Shown here: positions 16,592 through 23,393 of the stretch, in pieces
Layout of the letters: each line of letters opens with the position of its first letter
How positions within the stretch are numbered: position 1 is the first letter of the stretch
Assembly: GCA_016839805.1 (NCBI GenBank)
Contig: JAEOTO010000032.1
Span: 192,001-256,000, forward strand
From: Candidatus Hermodarchaeota archaeon
Lineage (GTDB): Archaea; Asgardarchaeota; Hermodarchaeia; Hermodarchaeales; Hermodarchaeaceae
Direction: 5' to 3'
Length of the DNA stretch: 64,000 nucleotides
The notes under the pieces: model-generated
Seen by the model: the letters and a program-made list of their open reading frames with translations, nothing else
What the model was told of the DNA's origin: nothing
The model's database searches: none
Made by a program: the position numbers and the translations under genes

Positions 16592-16688
16592 TGGCGCGGA
16601 GTAGGGGATTTGAACCCCTGCGACCAGATGGTCACTGGATAACCCGATTTATCTCGAGTCCAGCGCGTTACCGCTCCGCCAACTCCGC
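16592..16688 (-). tRNA. tRNA-Ser(CGA) with 12-nt intron at 37/38 (16641-16652)
   Basis: Cloverleaf with long variable arm, CTGGA-CT-CGA-G/A-TCCAG, encoded CCA. Confidence 0.92.
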
Positions 16689-16804: not shown

Positions 16805-17653
16805 TTGGTCCAATCAAAAGACGTAACAGCTATACAAAGGAAGTATAAAATCATTGGGCGCCAAGACATAATAACTCAATGTCTTGCTTCGGATCAGGCA
16901 GATAAACATCTTCTTATCGAAGGACCAGTTGGTGTTGGCAAAACCACGATTGCTTCAGCTATAGCTGATTTCTTAGGGCGCTCTTTTTTCCGTGTTGATG
17001 GGGATGAACGTTATACTTCAGCAAAGCTGGTTGGTTGGTTTGATCCCCCCGTTGTGTTGCAACAAGGCTATACACGCGACACTTTCGTTCCGGGTCCATT
17101 AATTGAAACTATGGAAACTGGTGGGGTACTTTTTATTAATGAAATCAATCGGATGCCTGAAGCAACGCAAAATACATTACTCCCTGTCATGGATGAAGGG
17201 CGCTTACATGTACCCAAATTAGGAACAATCCTTGCAAAAAATGGTTTCCGCATTATTGCTACACAAAATCCTGAAGCCAGTGTGGGTGTTACACCTCTTG
17301 GTGAGGCGCTTCGTGATCGCTATGTCTGGTTGTACTTGGACTATCATTCTGAATCAGAAGAGCAAGAAATTGTGAAAATAAATACTGGCGTTAAAGATGA
17401 AGAAATTCTCAATATTGCTGTAGCTATTACACGTGCGACACGTGATTATGTCGACATTTTACGAGGGGCCAGCGTTCGGGGTGCAATAGATACCGCTAGT
17501 TTATACAAACAACTTCCTGGGGATGGTCATAAAATTTGGGAACAAGCAGCGGTGATGTCGCTGGTGCCAAAAATCGAATTGAATGATAATGCCCAAAAAT
17601 CACCAGTTGAAGTGATATTAACCTTAGTAAAATCAATTTTAGCAAATTTTTGA
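16805..17653 (+). CDS. MoxR-family AAA+ ATPase
   Basis: GPVGVGKT, INEINR, IATQNP, ALRDR. Confidence 0.92.
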   Translation: MVQSKDVTAIQRKYKIIGRQDIITQCLASDQADKHLLIEGPVGVGKTTIASAIADFLGRSFFRVDGDERYTSAKLVGWFDPPVVLQQGYTRDTFVPGPLIETMETGGVLFINEINRMPEATQNTLLPVMDEGRLHVPKLGTILAKNGFRIIATQNPEASVGVTPLGEALRDRYVWLYLDYHSESEEQEIVKINTGVKDEEILNIAVAITRATRDYVDILRGASVRGAIDTASLYKQLPGDGHKIWEQAAVMSLVPKIELNDNAQKSPVEVILTLVKSILANF

Positions 17654-18723
17654 TCACGGAGGAGGCTGTGCCCTCCGATGACGTGCCTATTGTACTGTCG
17701 GGGACCATTTCAGATGAGAAACTATTTGAATCGGAAATCCGTGCTAGTGGGCGTGATTTTCAGTACTATCTTCGGCTGGGACGGACATTTGACTATCCTG
17801 CTGCTAAACAAATGGCTGAACTAGCCATCGAATTCGGTAACGTATCCGCGTTGCAAGCCTTGGCTCAACTCCAACCTATTGCCACTAGTGAAGCGATTTC
17901 CAGTCAAAATGGCGTTCACTTGATTGCGCGTTCAGCCCGAGAAGGTAATGTCGCTGCGCCCTTACTTTTTTTCCAACTCCGACATCAAATTCGAGGTAAA
18001 TATCGAGAAACTTTCCGAAAACTTGCCCGTGCTACCATTATCCATTCAGCGCTCCGGATTAGCGGTCGTGGTTTACGACCTGAAACAATTCAAAATGTTC
18101 CTTTCCATCCAGGTCTCAATGAATTCGATCTGGATGCTACACTAGAAGAAACCCTTCTAAAACCTGAATACGTTAGTTATACCGACATTGTCGGCATCGA
18201 GCGTGTAGCTCGAAGAAAAATCGGTACCATCATTCTCGATACTTCAGGATCCATGGCAGGTCTCAAATTGCTTACTGCCGCAACAGCAGCTGCGGTTGCT
18301 GCTTACCATCTTCGGCACGATAAATACGCGCTCATCGCTTTCAATACTGTCGCAAATACTGTCAAATCAATGGATCAACATACCACCATTGATTCTATCG
18401 TTGACACAATCCTCGATACCGAACCCGCTGGTTATACAAATATTGCTGACGCTCTCAAAACGGCTTATACCCAATATGAGCGCTCTCACCGGTATGAATC
18501 CTGGGCTATTCTCATTACTGACGGTATCGCCAACCGTGGTGGGTCACCAGAACCCTTTGCTCGTAAATATCAAAACCTCCATGTTCTTCAGACACCTGGG
18601 ACTCATCCCCAAGGTGAAGAAACCTGTCAACGCATCGCACTACTCGGTCGTGGACGTCACATTAAGGTAAACTCCTACACCGAAGTGCCACGTGCCCTAA
18701 TACGACTCTTACGACATACATAA
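17650..18723 (+). CDS. vWA-domain protein (MoxR partner)
   Basis: MIDAS DTSGSM, GYTNI, ITDG; 4-nt overlap with the moxR stop. Confidence 0.9.
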   Translation: MITEEAVPSDDVPIVLSGTISDEKLFESEIRASGRDFQYYLRLGRTFDYPAAKQMAELAIEFGNVSALQALAQLQPIATSEAISSQNGVHLIARSAREGNVAAPLLFFQLRHQIRGKYRETFRKLARATIIHSALRISGRGLRPETIQNVPFHPGLNEFDLDATLEETLLKPEYVSYTDIVGIERVARRKIGTIILDTSGSMAGLKLLTAATAAAVAAYHLRHDKYALIAFNTVANTVKSMDQHTTIDSIVDTILDTEPAGYTNIADALKTAYTQYERSHRYESWAILITDGIANRGGSPEPFARKYQNLHVLQTPGTHPQGEETCQRIALLGRGRHIKVNSYTEVPRALIRLLRHT

Positions 18724-18737
18724 CAAGAGAAAGTTGG

Positions 18738-18797
18738 TTAATAGGGGAAAGGACAAACGCCTAATGGACCAATTTCTTCTCCAGGAAGAGGATACAC
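18738..18797 (-). CDS. Micro-peptide MYPLPGEEIGPLGVCPFPY (19 aa)
   Basis: GTG start 5 nt after GGTGA, TTTAAG TATA-like box near 18831-18836; shares MYP...PFPY with the neighbouring micro-ORF. Confidence 0.6.
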   Translation of the reverse strand: MYPLPGEEIGPLGVCPFPY

Positions 18798-19054
18798 ATA
18801 ATTCACCAAAAGTTGGTGTGTAATTTCATACTTAAACACCAAAACATTTCGTACTATAGTATCGAAACAAAACCAAACTCATTTACTCAATTTTACAAAC
18901 GAATCTAAACAAACTTCGTAAGGCCAAATTACTTGCAAAAACTCTCTCAAAATCTCGTAAAAATAGTCCAACTCTTTTCGTGTAATTTTCTTTGTTTATA
19001 TAGAATTTTAGAACGGCTCCTATAGTAATAACAACTATGGAGGCATCTAACAAA

Positions 19055-19087
19055 ATGTACCCCCCGCAACATCCCTTCCCTTATTAA
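19055..19087 (+). CDS. Micro-peptide MYPPQHPFPY (10 aa; 16 aa if the in-frame ATG at 19037 is used)
   Basis: GGAGG at 19039-19043, TTTATATA near 18995; stop overlaps the stop of the 585-aa regulator. Confidence 0.6.
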   Translation: MYPPQHPFPY

Positions 19088-20841
19088 AAACTATTTTTCC
19101 TCCTTTTTTTTGACTTAATTTTTGGTAGTGTATTCTCTGTCCATACCCATTTTTTTGCATCAAAATCATAGTACTTTGGTTGAATTGGTGATTCAAAACC
19201 TGTCATTGCCTGCCAAGTAGGTTTCACTTGAAATGCTACATTGATTTCCTGGTTTGAAAAGATTTTTTGTAATGTTGATAGAACATCAACAGCATTATGA
19301 TTCGGGACATAAAGGAAAACATAACCATTACCATTTTCAAGAATTACTCCACTAATATTAGGAAGTATATGAAGCGATTGAAGTACTTGTATAGTTATTT
19401 CTCGTGGTTCGAAAATGTAAATTTGGATTACTGTGTCCAAGCCCACGTGGTAAAGAATCAATCCTTGTAGTTTGCTTACGTTGTTTTTTTCTAATTTCTT
19501 TATTTGTCTCCTAAATTTCATATGAGCTGAATCTGCAAGACCTGCGTAACGGGCTTCAAGTGATGGTTGTGCTGCTACTCGATCTGTGCTGAGAATAATT
19601 CTGTGATCTCGTCTAAAATATATGAAATCCTCAGGATTCAATTGAACAGGGAATTTCTGAGTGCTCTGTAATAAGTTGTAGGAAAATTCCAGTGAATACG
19701 TTTTTGGTATTTCTTCAACTGGTATCTCTTCTGATAAAATTGTACGAGATTTTTCGAGAATAACCGAAAAGTCTTGGGGCCATCCAATTTCGGGTATATA
19801 TGAACTAAGATTCCAGTTGTTAATAATCTCAGAGCTTCGTACGTTCATTAATATTGAGATCTTCTCTTGAACCACGAGGTCTTCTAACCAATCGTTAAAG
19901 GTCATTCTTTGGTTGTTTGGGATAAGTACTCTACAATGAAGTAGGTTATCCTGAATGAGGTTAATTAACCAGGTGTAACAAATTTCAGAAAAGAAAGATG
20001 AAATCTGCTGGCATTTCTTTTGGCTTGGTATCTGTAGAATTACCTCATGGGGAGTTAATCCGATTAATGGTAAGTTGATAAAGTGATATAAGCGAAGTAG
20101 ATGTCTTTGAGCAAGTTTATTCAACGCTTGACTAAGAGCAGAAGGGGTCATTTGAAGTTGTTTAGCAAGTTTGCTTTGATGGAGGGTAGTTATGTGTTTC
20201 AGCGTCAAAAGGATACGTAGCTCACTACTCGTAAGAGGGGTATGGGTCTCAAGCATCCACCGTTCAAGGGCGGCAGTATAGGTTGATGTGGCGAGGGGAG
20301 TGCCGGTGCTTGTGGGACGAATAGTGTTAAGCCAGTGGAGGGCGCGGTGGAGAAAGCTGCCGGCAACAACTTGATCGAAGAGGGGGAAGCCTAAGGGCGC
20401 GTCGTATATGTAGTGCTGGTAGTGTTGGGGTGGGGACACCTGCTTCCAGATCTTGGTAAACGCCTTATATTCAGATTCGGTATAGTTGCCGTAACGGAGA
20501 CCAGCGTAGAGGCCAAGGTCAGCCGCTTCGGGGATGTGACGTAGGTGAGGTAGAAGAAGGCTTAGGAGGGCTTCCCGCCAAAGCACCCAATCTAAGACAT
20601 GGGAGTCAGCATCTTTGAGGTCCCGGGCGAGGGCAACGTACCAACCGCCGCGTAGTTGGTTCGCAAGTTGTGTTTCAAGAGCGCCAAAGCGTGGGCGATC
20701 ATAGATTAACGGGTTGTCACCCCATACGAGGTAAAGAATACGGTCTTGCTTCCGGAATAAGGAATCCATAATGAGCTCGGTGGCTAATTGATCCTGTTTA
20801 CGATGGAACCTTTGCATCAGCTCACGCGACCTCGATGACAA
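19084..20841 (-). CDS. Large multi-domain wHTH (MarR/Lrp-like) regulator, paralog 1
   Basis: QSKLAKQLQMTPSALSQALNKL...INLPLIGL; N-terminal RFGA/LWREA/EAADL domain; second degenerate HTH/RAM module. Confidence 0.85.
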   Translation of the reverse strand: MSSRSRELMQRFHRKQDQLATELIMDSLFRKQDRILYLVWGDNPLIYDRPRFGALETQLANQLRGGWYVALARDLKDADSHVLDWVLWREALLSLLLPHLRHIPEAADLGLYAGLRYGNYTESEYKAFTKIWKQVSPPQHYQHYIYDAPLGFPLFDQVVAGSFLHRALHWLNTIRPTSTGTPLATSTYTAALERWMLETHTPLTSSELRILLTLKHITTLHQSKLAKQLQMTPSALSQALNKLAQRHLLRLYHFINLPLIGLTPHEVILQIPSQKKCQQISSFFSEICYTWLINLIQDNLLHCRVLIPNNQRMTFNDWLEDLVVQEKISILMNVRSSEIINNWNLSSYIPEIGWPQDFSVILEKSRTILSEEIPVEEIPKTYSLEFSYNLLQSTQKFPVQLNPEDFIYFRRDHRIILSTDRVAAQPSLEARYAGLADSAHMKFRRQIKKLEKNNVSKLQGLILYHVGLDTVIQIYIFEPREITIQVLQSLHILPNISGVILENGNGYVFLYVPNHNAVDVLSTLQKIFSNQEINVAFQVKPTWQAMTGFESPIQPKYYDFDAKKWVWTENTLPKIKSKKRRKNSF

Positions 20842-20935
20842 TATTTAGCCATCCAACCACACGATGACTATACAAGGGATTCAGGTTAATTTTACCTTCC
20901 GATTATCCTTGAAGTATCAATAAATAAAAGAAAGG

Positions 20936-20958
20936 AAGGAAACCATCGAGGTTTCCTT
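20936..20958 (-). terminator. Hairpin followed by a T-rich tract, downstream of micro-peptide 3
   Basis: AAGGAAACC-atcga-GGTTTCCTT perfect 9-bp stem with T-rich flanks. Confidence 0.5.
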
Positions 20959-21003
20959 TTAGTAAGTACTAAGTAGGAATCGATGTATGTCCCTTTTTAT
21001 TTC

Positions 21004-21042
21004 CTAAATATCATGAGGGTCAGGACGACGAGGGGGCCACAT
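21004..21042 (-). CDS. Micro-peptide MWPPRRPDPHDI (12 aa)
   Basis: Leader GGAGGCATCAAAACA-ATG closely matches GGAGGCATCTAACAAA-ATG of micro-peptide 2; TTTAAA box near 21094-21099. Confidence 0.6.
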   Translation of the reverse strand: MWPPRRPDPHDI

Positions 21043-21197
21043 TGTTTTGATGCCTCCGAGGGTTATCTACTCTTCATTTCATGTAAGTTTCCCTTTAAAG
21101 ACCGAAAATTATTTGCAAAAAGTAGGATGGATTTTTTTTCTAAATGGACTTTTTGTGTAATAATCTGGTTATTGGTTGTTACATTCATGAATAATTA

Positions 21198-22928
21198 TCA
21201 GGTGCGAGGTAGTGGCAAGGTATCTTTTGTCCATATCCACATGTTTTTTCCAAAGTCGTAGTTAACAGAATCTATAGTATATGGTCCCGTCCATCCATAA
21301 GCTTCCCACGCAGGTCTAATTGCTGTAACGGCCGGAATTTCAAGGGCAGTGAGTAATTCGTTTAAGGAGATTTGTAGATATACAGCGGACTCAGAAGGTA
21401 CAAGAAGTGTAGCAACACCAGCTCCATCATCGAATATTCTTCCTGCAACGTGTGGAAACAGTTGACACGCAGTGAAGATTAGGCGAGTTTCCTCTATTGA
21501 TGATTCAAGGTATAGATAGAGAGCAGTATTTAAGCCAATATTTAACAACCCAAGTCCGAGTGGTGGGCTAATTACTTCATTTTTTTCAAGATATTTGACA
21601 CGTCGACGATAAGCCATGTGTTCAGATTCTTTATATCCAGCCTGCCTCAACTCATGGGACTCAAAAAACTTCATGTGCTCAGTAGCGAGATAAGCATCAG
21701 ATGCTCTTTGCATGAAAAAGAAATCTTGTTGTTTAATCTCGATGCTTTTTTTCGAATGAGAGGAAGCCAGCTTGTAAAAGTTAATGGGTGGTAAATGTGG
21801 AATCCATTCTTCTGATATTAATCTCGAAAAATTGTCAAATATTGATTCGATTTCAAGGGACCAGCCATCCTTTTGGGGGTCGTACAGATTAAAGTTTCGA
21901 GCGTGCATTCTTTCTGAAATCATTCGTAGTTCCGGTGAGCTAAGACCATAACTTGAAGACACTTGTTTAAGCCATTGGCGGAATCGTGTCATTCGTTCTG
22001 TTGGAATTAAGAATGAAGCTAAAAGCTGATTATTGAATTCTTGAATTGCAAGTGCATAACGAATTCTAGAGATTATTTGCGTCAGGGAATTTTTAATTCT
22101 CATATTCGAAGTAGAAAATTTGACTGTGATTGGTTGAAGACCAAGTATCGGATAATTTTCGAAGATAACAAACCGTAAAAGGTGTTTTTCTGCAAGTCTT
22201 TTAATTACTTGACTTATTGTTGGCTGGCGGATGTTGAGTTTATCAGCTAATTCGATCTGTGAACAGGTAAGACAATTGTTAATGCCCTTTAGGATTTTAA
22301 GTTCTATTGGTCGTAAAATTCTGTGATAGTTGAACATCCAGCGTTCGAGATTCTCAGCATAAGTCTGTGTGGTCATCTTCGTTGATAGTTGAAAGAATGG
22401 TTTGAACCATAGTTTGGTCTTCTGGAGAAAGGTACCATCTACAAGTTTATCGAAAAACGGAAACCCTGCTGTGGGAAAATAGCGGTAAAAGGTATATTCT
22501 ATAGGTGGTGATGTAATTTCCCAGATTTGGAGAAACCAGTGTCGCTGCTTCTTGGTTCTGAGTGCATAGCGGGAGTAGCAATATAGACCGAGATCAGAGG
22601 CTTCTTTTACAGAGCGTACTATTTTGGGTATGTGGAGTAGATAGGCTTCACGCCATAATACCGCATTAAGAAGATTCCTACGTTCAGTAAGCAATTCTTC
22701 CGATAATTCCAAAGTTAATTGATTGTTGGTGCTTGTTTCGTTAGCACCGAAGCGTGGTCCGGTGAGTTCGATTGGGTTTTGGATCCAGCGAATAGTAGTA
22801 TACGTGTCGAGGGATTCGGTACCAATAATCTGTTGTAATTGTCGTGCGATTTCATTAAAACGATGCAAAGCTTCTGTCTTTCGTTGCTTAAGGATTTCAT
22901 CTGAAATTTTAGAAGGATTTGTATTCAT
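21198..22928 (-). CDS. Large multi-domain wHTH (MarR/Lrp-like) regulator, paralog 2
   Basis: Collinear with 19084..20841 (RFGA, LWREA, EASDLGLY, LERWM, W.WTKDTLP); SQIELADKLNIRQPTISQVIKRL. Confidence 0.85.
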   Translation of the reverse strand: MNTNPSKISDEILKQRKTEALHRFNEIARQLQQIIGTESLDTYTTIRWIQNPIELTGPRFGANETSTNNQLTLELSEELLTERRNLLNAVLWREAYLLHIPKIVRSVKEASDLGLYCYSRYALRTKKQRHWFLQIWEITSPPIEYTFYRYFPTAGFPFFDKLVDGTFLQKTKLWFKPFFQLSTKMTTQTYAENLERWMFNYHRILRPIELKILKGINNCLTCSQIELADKLNIRQPTISQVIKRLAEKHLLRFVIFENYPILGLQPITVKFSTSNMRIKNSLTQIISRIRYALAIQEFNNQLLASFLIPTERMTRFRQWLKQVSSSYGLSSPELRMISERMHARNFNLYDPQKDGWSLEIESIFDNFSRLISEEWIPHLPPINFYKLASSHSKKSIEIKQQDFFFMQRASDAYLATEHMKFFESHELRQAGYKESEHMAYRRRVKYLEKNEVISPPLGLGLLNIGLNTALYLYLESSIEETRLIFTACQLFPHVAGRIFDDGAGVATLLVPSESAVYLQISLNELLTALEIPAVTAIRPAWEAYGWTGPYTIDSVNYDFGKNMWIWTKDTLPLPRT

Positions 22929-23050
22929 TGTGAGAGTTCCCGTGGTTTTCCCTAGACTAGTCTATTCATGAATATGACATCTTAATAGTCTTAGGAAGAA
23001 TAAGTGATTGAAGGTGTGGAGTTTTTCTATTCTATAGTCTTGAGATGAAT

Positions 23051-23224
23051 GGCGCGACTGCTTGGTCGTAGTCCGGGTGGCTGAGCGGTGTACAATCTGT
23101 GGGGTGGTTGGATGCCTCGCAACAATAATCGATTGCACATCTCCCCTCGTTGGATCCGACTGCCGATTGAGGGTCCGGAATCGTGCCGGGGGTACAATAC
23201 GGTAGTCGGAGCACGGCCACTACG
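23051..23224 (+). ncRNA. Candidate structured ncRNA of unknown family
   Basis: GC-rich intergenic island folding into a three-way junction with many G-U pairs on the + strand. Confidence 0.45.
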
Positions 23225-23273
23225 TTAGCCAATTTTTATCAGAAATTGCTAACAGTTCAAATAGCAGAAGAAG

Positions 23274-23393
23274 TGGTAGCGGGGGGTTGATTTGAACAAC
23301 CGATCTCGGGGTTTCCCAAGGGGATTTATGAGCCCCGCGGGATATCAGGTCTCGGTGAGGAACACCAAGATATCCTGGCTACCCCACCCCGCT
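23274..23393 (-). tRNA. Initiator tRNA-Met(CAT) with two introns (D-loop 23344-23371; anticodon loop 23313-23326)
   Basis: A1-U72, consecutive G-C pairs in the anticodon stem, perfect BHB CAGG-ATA/CCTG-ATA; 78-nt mature form. Confidence 0.92.

Follow-up and report, generated by a model that had tools for sequence, protein, structure and literature searches.

The stretch analysed here, a 64-kb window (contig JAEOTO010000032.1, positions 192,001 to 256,000; coordinates below count from its first letter) of the 2.31-Mb metagenome-assembled genome of an Asgard archaeon of the Hermod lineage, carries a tandem pair of paralogous genes for large putative regulators, and around this pair lie three open reading frames (ORFs) of only 10–19 codons. 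These micro-ORFs represent three classes, A, B and C, that recur around the regulator pair across the genus. Standard gene callers report none of them, and at 10–12 codons the shorter ones would rank among the shortest conserved protein-coding genes known. An earlier inspection of the letters alone, hereafter the sequence-only reading, had picked out all three, which exist at the coordinates and on the strands that it gave (Table 1), and had proposed that they encode peptides sensed by the adjacent regulators. Our comparison of related loci shows the micro-ORFs and the two regulators to be a module conserved, as judged from sequence, through one Hermodarchaeota genus, and we consider below what the predicted peptides may do.

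A conserved module of micro-genes and paired regulators

Loci of relatives were compared after being oriented by their regulators. Each of the other 14 genomes of the genus has the tandem pair, as does a sister genus, and the usual gene order, with arrowheads for direction, is MoxR-AAA> VWA> <C tRNA-iMet> (conserved RNA-like region) regulator 2> A> regulator 1> <B. Inheritance of the micro-ORF locus is vertical, and the 14 other genomes keep it in synteny with housekeeping genes; its neighbours in the window include genes that Pfam assigns to eRF1, the small subunit of PolD and a class I aminoacyl-tRNA synthetase, and the AAA-VWA order is seen in relatives and in the locus L062. In the host genome and its nearest relative (G013) the block from tRNA-iMet to B is inverted, with the result that B adjoins C. 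Variants of the micro-ORFs also occur in the sister genus and in distant metagenomic lineages.

Class A, with the consensus M(x)[WY]PPxRP[DE]Px, is present in 15/15 genomes of the genus, as tandem duplicates in at least two, and a class A-like ORF stands upstream of the first regulator in genus g2. The sequence-only reading had placed this ORF beyond regulator 2; it does lie 155 nt past that gene, and equally 162 nt upstream of regulator 1. Class B (consensus MYP[PAQ]R[DP]PxPx) was recovered from 14 of the 15 genomes, that is the host and 13 of the 14 others, the missing one having a contig that ends inside regulator 1; it occurs in G017 besides, and stays by regulator 1, at its 3′ end, regardless of the gene beyond. 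Class C, whose conserved core is MYPxPG[DET]E[PI]GPL, is likewise present in the host and 13 of the 14 others (14/15), the remaining contig starting at regulator 2. Its ORF has 12, 19 or 31 codons depending on the genome and in every case is convergent with the VWA gene, keeping this place even after the inversion; in genus g2, too, a class C-like ORF converges on the VWA gene. Of the micro-ORFs that the sequence-only reading set just beyond the 3′ ends of the regulators, the one of 19 codons goes instead with the VWA gene, at its 3′ end, and not with a regulator. The start codon of class C is GTG here and ATG in the nearest relative, and the PFPY ending, present in this genome, is otherwise common only to the closest relative.

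Table 1. Features of the micro-gene locus, with positions in the 64-kb window.
Feature	Position	Strand	Remarks
MoxR-type AAA+ ATPase (16805-17653) and VWA protein (17650-18723)	16805..18723	+	Pfam; conserved context
Class C micro-gene, 19 codons, GTG start, V/M-YPLPGEEIGPLGVCPFPY	18738..18797	-	converges on 3′ end of VWA gene
Shine-Dalgarno GGTGA of class C	18803..18807	-	TTGGTGA, 5-7 nt before the start, in nearly all orthologues
TATA box of class C (GTTTAAGT)	18830..18837	-	all orthologues have an A/T box about 35-40 nt before the start
Near-palindrome TTTCG-TACTATAGTA-TCGAAA, candidate operator	18847..18867	.	directly upstream of class C TATA box
Degenerate copy (CTTTTCGTG) of the TTTTTGCA box	18974..18982	+	upstream of class B TATA box; seen on aligning 14 class B promoters
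TATA box of class B (GTTTATATAG)	18994..19003	+	conserved about 55 nt upstream of ATG in 14 genomes
Shine-Dalgarno leader GGAGGCATC of class B	19039..19047	+	promoter alignments
Class B micro-gene, 10 codons, MYPPQHPFPY	19055..19087	+	converges on regulator 1
Regulator 1, 585 aa from TTG (577 aa from ATG at 20817)	19084..20841	-	Pfam, AF2, Foldseek, VIA
Terminator-like hairpin, 9 bp and T-rich tail	20936..20958	-	separates class A from regulator 1
Class A micro-gene, 12 codons, MWPPRRPDPHDI	21004..21042	-	strand of the regulators, in the gap between them
Shine-Dalgarno leader GGAGGCATC of class A	21049..21057	-	promoter alignments
TATA box of class A (CTTTAAAG)	21093..21100	-	promoter alignments
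TTTTTGCAA box, candidate operator	21113..21121	-	about 13 nt upstream of class A TATA box; common to class B promoters
Regulator 2, 576 aa, paralogue of regulator 1 (32% identity)	21198..22928	-	same architecture

Across all classes the third codon positions are approximately 2–4 times more variable than the first two. Mean pairwise differences at codon positions 1/2/3 are 0.12/0.19/0.52 for class A and 0.29/0.36/0.60 for class B, with ratios of non-synonymous to synonymous differences (pN/pS) of 0.43 and 0.46 respectively, and 0.17/0.17/0.50 for class C with a pN/pS of 0.29. Where a residue (Pro, Gly, Leu, Tyr) is invariant, two to four synonymous codons encode it, and exchanges even cross codon families: leucine is encoded by both TTR and CTT in class C, and arginine by both CGN and AGG in class A. 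The frame is kept while the start codon may be ATG, GTG or TTG and the stop codon TAA, TAG or TGA, and lengths differ by whole codons. Rfam and ARAGORN found nothing overlapping the micro-ORFs. Given this codon-position pattern, the synonymous swaps and the absence of an Rfam match, selection appears to act on a translated product and not on a DNA site or a structured RNA; that these are untranslated conserved elements, open by chance, is scarcely credible against period-three variation, synonymous exchange, and shifting starts and stops around a constant frame. The comparison thus shows the micro-ORFs to be real, independently promoted genes of 10–19 codons under purifying selection on the predicted peptide. 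The sequence-only reading had agreed to be judged on whether homologous loci kept the micro-ORFs and conserved them at the codon level, and it held in each genome of the genus open to checking, as well as in other lineages.

The encoded peptides of classes A and B are 10–12 residues long, hydrophilic and proline-rich. Residues other than proline (Y/W, R, D/E, G and L) are conserved too, which argues for a specific binding surface on the predicted peptides. As the sequence-only reading had remarked, no signal peptide or hydrophobic segment is visible, with the exception of class C in one clade. In this clade (G002, G006 and G005; loci L050, L051 and L052) class C reaches 31 codons through a 19-residue hydrophobic tail (MYPIPGTEIGPL followed by MAIFWVFF...), possibly a membrane-anchored form, and classes A and B each have one extra residue after the methionine. 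Another unusual form is the class B peptide of G017 (locus L053), which is convergent with the second regulator and is an exact tandem of an 11-residue unit, YPPSRPDGGPN-N-YPPSRPDGGPN; this fits a unit peptide, as if the precursor held two mature copies.

Each class has its own expression signals, and here too the earlier claim of a Shine-Dalgarno-like and a TATA-like element for every ORF is upheld by their conservation in orthologues. TATA boxes lie some 50–60 nt upstream of the start in A and B. The Shine-Dalgarno sequences are strong, GGAGGCAT for A and B and GGTGA for C, and such words are enriched about four-fold at -16 to -7 of long ORFs genome-wide (GGTGA 73 against 18 further upstream; GGAGG 78 against 18). 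A leader common to two of the ORFs had also been reported, correctly: GGAGGCATC has only two copies in the window, 7–8 nt before the ATG codons of classes A and B (0.28 expected; two or more in 5/100 shuffles). About 13 nt upstream of the TATA box, promoters A and B have the TTTTTGCA box in common, and when 15 class A promoters are aligned with 14 of class B the TTTTTGCAA box is the best-conserved block outside the core. The near-palindrome of class C is almost invariant in 11/11 aligned genomes and present in G008, and it stayed with class C after the inversion; a palindrome search of the window found this single site, with no second copy at the A or B promoters. Both the TTTTTGCA box and the palindrome are candidate operators. 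A 6-bp hairpin, CACCAA...TTGGTG (18804-18818), covers the Shine-Dalgarno sequence of class C in the host genome and its nearest relative only.

At the other end of the transcripts, an oligo-T stretch follows the class B stop within 6–30 nt in 10/14 genomes, and a hairpin follows class B in three relatives. The class B stop is 17–45 nt from that of the regulator, overlapping only in the host genome and its nearest relative (in the host the two stops share TTAA). An antisense role for class B was considered and rejected, the oligo-T being too close. With their predicted promoters and ends, A, B and C look like separate, very short transcription units. The sequencing runs listed as containing this DNA are all DNA metagenomes, most of them from sediment, with no RNA run among them.

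The motifs are rare outside these positions. The A/B pattern M.{0,1}[YW]P[PAQR].[RHDP]P...stop has only these two sites in the 2.31-Mb genome, and the class C motif occurs once. ORFs led by a Shine-Dalgarno sequence, 7–35 codons long and at least 30% proline, number 13 in the genome, or about 0.006 per kb, and two of these flank regulator 1. Among 400 Asgard genomes a strict class A DNA pattern matched in eight, all of this genus and all at this locus, where a control pattern gave two matches.

Beyond the genus, the loci L064 and L066 are metagenomic contigs with a single regulator (~35% identity) among unrelated neighbours, and in both a B-like ORF converges on the 3′ end of the regulator (MYPPRNPWPEPY and MYPPKAPWPPF, each with a TATA box and a Shine-Dalgarno sequence). 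A 371-aa neighbour of the L064 regulator was examined as a homologue of the VWA protein and proved not to be homologous. Further proline-rich micro-ORFs led by Shine-Dalgarno sequences stand beside very distant members of the regulator family in low-GC genomes (L023/L068, L069, L070). A third, more distant paralogue on another contig of the host lacks both the RFGAxE motif described below and any such micro-ORF. Because class B follows regulator 1, B-like ORFs persist in unrelated contexts, and paralogue 3 has neither motif nor ORF, the coupling appears to be with the regulator family and not with the neighbouring genes. These sequence comparisons show related proline-rich micro-genes accompanying the same regulator family in other Asgard lineages.

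Two of these distant cases have features of their own. A fourth class, MVGP...WPSPWPEPPPP with a GGTGA Shine-Dalgarno sequence, lies upstream of distant family members at L023:2916-2996 (+) and L068:360-425 (+), in lineages of ~34% GC, and its copies differ at synonymous sites. At L069:1299-1340 (-) a 13-codon proline-rich ORF, MPPAEFPIPIPPQ, lies between two tandem family regulators and adjoins Cas6 and Cas8-like genes, a hint that some versions of the module sit in CRISPR-Cas loci.

Several RNA features surround the module in the window. An initiator-type tRNA-Met gene at 23274-23393 (-), with the anticodon CAT and beginning AGCGGGG, was missed by both ARAGORN and Rfam; compared with the 77-nt gene of relatives it has insertions of ~25 nt in the D-arm region and of 13 nt just 3′ of the anticodon. 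Between it and regulator 2, at ~23040-23260 (-), some 180–200 nt show 74–89% nucleotide identity genus-wide, have no Rfam match and carry the word GAGGCATCC, which resembles the leaders of the micro-genes; this region is likely to be a structured RNA or a long 5′ leader of regulator 2. A 66-codon ORF that overlaps it (23032-23232) was considered as a small protein partner and rejected as not coding, its frame not being kept in relatives. On the other flank, a tRNA-Ser gene at 16592-16688 (-) is 97 nt long and probably contains an intron.

A predicted pseudo-peptidase fused to Lrp-type modules

Pfam recognises little in the regulators, finding in regulator 1 only a marginal winged helix-turn-helix (wHTH) of the MarR type at residues ~203-250 (MarR 25.6 bits; MarR/HTH_24, and no AsnC_trans_reg). 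An AlphaFold (AF2) model built with 31 homologues is predicted with confidence (predicted local distance difference test, pLDDT, 87; predicted TM-score, pTM, 0.83), and its layout comprises a pseudo-M1-aminopeptidase N-domain (aa 1-200), the wHTH, a RAM-like domain, a degenerate second HTH and a second RAM-like domain. Since residues ~200-585 match the fused double-Lrp protein NirDL (4ch7, Foldseek E 1.2e-7) and many Lrp/AsnC regulators (2dbb, 2p6t, 2e7w, 3i4p and others, with probability 1.0 and target TM-scores of 0.44–0.53), the C-terminal half is modelled as two wHTH plus RAM-like modules of the Lrp/AsnC type.

The 200-residue N-domain also folds well alone (pLDDT 89). Foldseek returned no significant match for it, and searches of PDB sequences and Pfam with its sequence gave no peptidase match. 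An exhaustive VIA search, by comparison, aligned ten M1-type chains over 163–172 of the 200 residues at Z 10.7–8.0; the best matches include factor F3 aminopeptidase (Z 10.7), puromycin-sensitive aminopeptidase (PSA, 9.4) and a chain of TFIID (8.1), and almost all of the top 50 are zincins. We take the TFIID chain to be TAF2, which has an inactive aminopeptidase-like domain.

Within this domain the family has an invariant R51-F52-G53...E56 (G-A-L-E-T), of which G53-A-L-E56 lies on strand 54-58. R89-E90 follows on the next helix, 36 residues after G53, and Y112 on the helix after that, 23 further; the 36/23 spacing equals that of G316AMEN, H352EXXH and E375 in PSA. By this spacing the zinc-ligand positions are replaced by R89-E90-x-x-L93 and Y112, so that both histidines and the distal glutamate are gone, and HEXXH was found in none of 16 family members inspected. 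In PSA, the GAMEN glutamate has been proposed to hold the free N-terminus of the substrate (PMC10343166). From fold and spacing we infer that the regulators have lost the metal ligands while keeping the catalytic-base glutamate and the GAxE N-terminus anchor. The domain is rare, with 35 clusters among 1.84 billion representatives, all showing this architecture and nearly all of them full-length matches of 510–590 aa. As far as structural models can show, therefore, each regulator joins a zinc-less M1-aminopeptidase-like domain to two Lrp/AsnC-type modules.

What the peptides may do

We tentatively favour the reading that the peptides are ligands of the pseudo-peptidase regulators and that the two form a peptide-sensing gene switch. 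The peptides would be made in the cytoplasm. Ordinary aminopeptidases, which cannot cut X-Pro bonds, would trim the residues ahead of the aromatic and halt at the resistant [Y/W]-Pro bond, whereby all variants (M-, MQ-, MS-, MT-, MH-) would converge on a [Y/W]-P... N-terminus. Once trimmed, the peptide would bind the pseudo-peptidase domain in its substrate groove, where the glutamate of the retained GAxE motif would grip the free N-terminus; richness in proline would shield the peptide from proteases and keep it extended, a shape that suits the groove of a zincin. Occupancy would then alter DNA binding by the Lrp-type modules at conserved boxes in the micro-gene promoters (the palindrome in C, TTTTTGCA in the other two), and the result would be a peptide-gated feedback switch. 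Indirect support for a receptor comes from the predicted N-terminal domain itself, a fold of peptide-binding type that appears to keep the GAxE motif, and from the proline-rich micro-genes that are found, in varying orientation, with distant members of the regulator family. A bolder version, in which this would be the first peptide-based gene regulation of Archaea, and possibly cell-to-cell communication, with protease-resistant proline peptides, three channels and a sensor derived from an M1 aminopeptidase that has ceased to catalyse but still grips a peptide N-terminus, widespread in Asgard archaea, we regard as doubtful.

Several points count against the ligand reading. There are three peptide classes and only two regulators, and class C travels with the VWA gene and not with a regulator. 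A pseudo-aminopeptidase domain need not bind peptides, as TAF2 exemplifies. The assignment of GAxE, RE and Y as M1 motifs comes from fold match and spacing and not from residue-level superposition, and the N-domain has no sequence-level similarity to any peptidase. Regulators often adjoin their own targets, hence the micro-genes could be outputs and not inputs. The predicted peptides carry no signal for export, which makes a role between cells doubtful. Co-folding of the N-domains of regulators 1 and 2 of G006 with its 31-residue class C peptide, the only form long enough, scored 0.01 and is evidence neither way.

If the micro-genes are instead outputs under the control of the regulators, their products would be stable proline-rich peptides acting elsewhere, on the MoxR-VWA machine in the case of class C, in the ribosome exit tunnel or on proline-recognition domains. 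This is unlikely in our estimate, for all that it accommodates the operator-like boxes conserved in all three promoters, the fidelity of class C to the VWA gene through the inversion and the excess of peptides over regulators, and that the Y-x-P-R-P-like cores recall motifs of proline-rich antimicrobial peptides; it leaves unexplained why a regulator should have a peptide-binding-type fold with an N-terminus anchor motif, and why the pairing of micro-gene and regulator is the only element kept in distant lineages with unrelated neighbours. Another account takes its cue from CreT of the Pseudomonas aeruginosa type I-F system, in which a Shine-Dalgarno sequence and a 15-nt ORF ending Pro-Pro-stop are followed by a hairpin and the peptide itself is irrelevant (bioRxiv 10.64898/2026.06.02.729485). 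The micro-genes would then be RNA toxins, mini-ORFs translated at a high level whose proline codons arrest ribosomes, silenced by the adjacent wHTH proteins in place of Cascade-CreA, as a toxin/repressor or abortive-defence module. They do combine a strong Shine-Dalgarno sequence with a very short ORF containing consecutive proline codons and then a hairpin (class A here, class B in three relatives) or oligo-T; the wobble of their proline codons is compatible with the finding that CreT stays toxic after synonymous proline changes; PP is in every class A copy, the L068 ORF ends PPPP-stop, and one distant family member, that of L069, adjoins cas genes. Yet PP is found in 0/13 class C copies and in only 7/15 of class B, being absent from the other 8/15, and no ORF of the genus ends Pro-Pro-stop, while residues other than proline are conserved through synonymous codons and one clade adds a hydrophobic tail of 19 residues to class C. 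The locus is, moreover, vertical and syntenic in 14 other genomes, unlike typical mobile toxin modules, and we judge this origin to be rather improbable.

The sequence-only reading had itself offered translation-sensing leader peptides as an alternative, which fits poorly. Such peptides, acting in cis as leaders or by arrest, would report on proline, Pro-tRNA or the capacity of aIF5A and would control the gene that lies downstream or overlaps, through translation-coupled termination or antisense read-through. Class A could serve, standing upstream of regulator 1 on its strand, and upstream of the first regulator in genus g2, with a hairpin and T-tract in between that could act as an attenuator; WPP and PP are, besides, known stall contexts. 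But no gene follows class B or class C in the same direction, neither class conserves PP, and the nearness of oligo-T to class B (within ~30 nt in most genomes, and with a stop 17–45 nt before that of the regulator) would leave minimal antisense overlap. For class A the hairpin is terminator-like, and folding of the class A transcript gave no significant alternative structure downstream (z = -1.2). Leader peptides are on this evidence quite improbable. We give still less credence to precursors of ribosomally synthesised and post-translationally modified peptides (RiPPs), matured by the zincin-like domain or the MoxR-VWA pair. Genes as short have a precedent in the 7-codon mccA, and a protease-like fold does adjoin the micro-genes, but the conserved neighbourhood has no recognisable modifying enzyme, and no member of the family has any metal ligand left in its zincin-like domain.

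Comparison with known systems

A literature search found no paper describing such a micro-gene/regulator module, which is without a described counterpart. The fusion of a dead aminopeptidase to a double Lrp unit is likewise an undescribed architecture, and it echoes eukaryotic TAF2 in an Asgard archaeon. Were the peptides ligands, archaea would own a peptide-gated transcription switch, none being described in the literature searched; were they arrest toxins, a recently reported bacterial mechanism would extend to archaea, with a protein as repressor. The parts are short enough for synthesis and the proteins model confidently.

The regulators resemble Lrp/AsnC proteins (FFRP) and NirDL/AhbAB in uniting wHTH and RAM-type alpha-beta sandwich domains, twice per chain as in NirDL. 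Lrp proteins bind free amino acids. The present proteins differ in having 576–585 aa, against a single module of ~150 aa, with an extra zincin-like N-domain of 200 residues and a degenerate second HTH, and sequence models of the family do not recognise them. With M1 aminopeptidases they share the thermolysin-like catalytic-domain fold, G-A-x-E on the edge strand and the helix glutamate at the same spacing, whereas the zinc ligands of HEXXH-X18-E are missing and the sequences show no similarity. TAF2 of TFIID likewise places a dead peptidase fold within a transcription factor.

Likeness to CreT extends to the Shine-Dalgarno sequence, the mini-ORF with consecutive proline codons, the hairpin, a dedicated repressor and, in some relatives, a place beside cas genes; the differences are the greater length (10–19 codons), the conserved residues other than proline, the dispensability of PP in two of the three classes, a protein regulator as partner and a core syntenic locus. 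Leader and arrest peptides (SecM, TnaC, ApdA-type RAPP, WPPP) are also short conserved proline-rich ORFs with an aromatic, in which the peptide sequence and not the codons alone is kept; here, by contrast, two of three ORFs precede no gene and each has its own predicted promoter and terminator.

The closest parallel in organisation is with the RRNPP systems of Firmicutes and phages (Rgg/SHP, ComR/ComS, PlcR/PapR, AimR/AimP), in which a tiny peptide gene likewise adjoins the gene for its receptor, a cytoplasmic DNA-binding protein, the two being tandem, divergent or convergent, and the peptide classes diversify along with paralogous receptors. Adjacency of this kind is found here, A and B flanking regulator 1 wherever the contig allows (A 15/15, B 14/15). 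In streptococci, some peptides without a classical signal peptide use a dedicated exporter (PMC7564271). The differences lie in the parts: the regulators have no TPR, none being found in Pfam or fold searches, and no XRE-type HTH; the peptides, at 10–12 residues as encoded, are hydrophilic and proline-rich and have no pro-region; and the host is an Asgard archaeon. If the ligand reading is true, the module would be a functional analogue of RRNPP quorum sensing whose parts are unrelated and whose hosts are the prokaryotes closest to eukaryotes.

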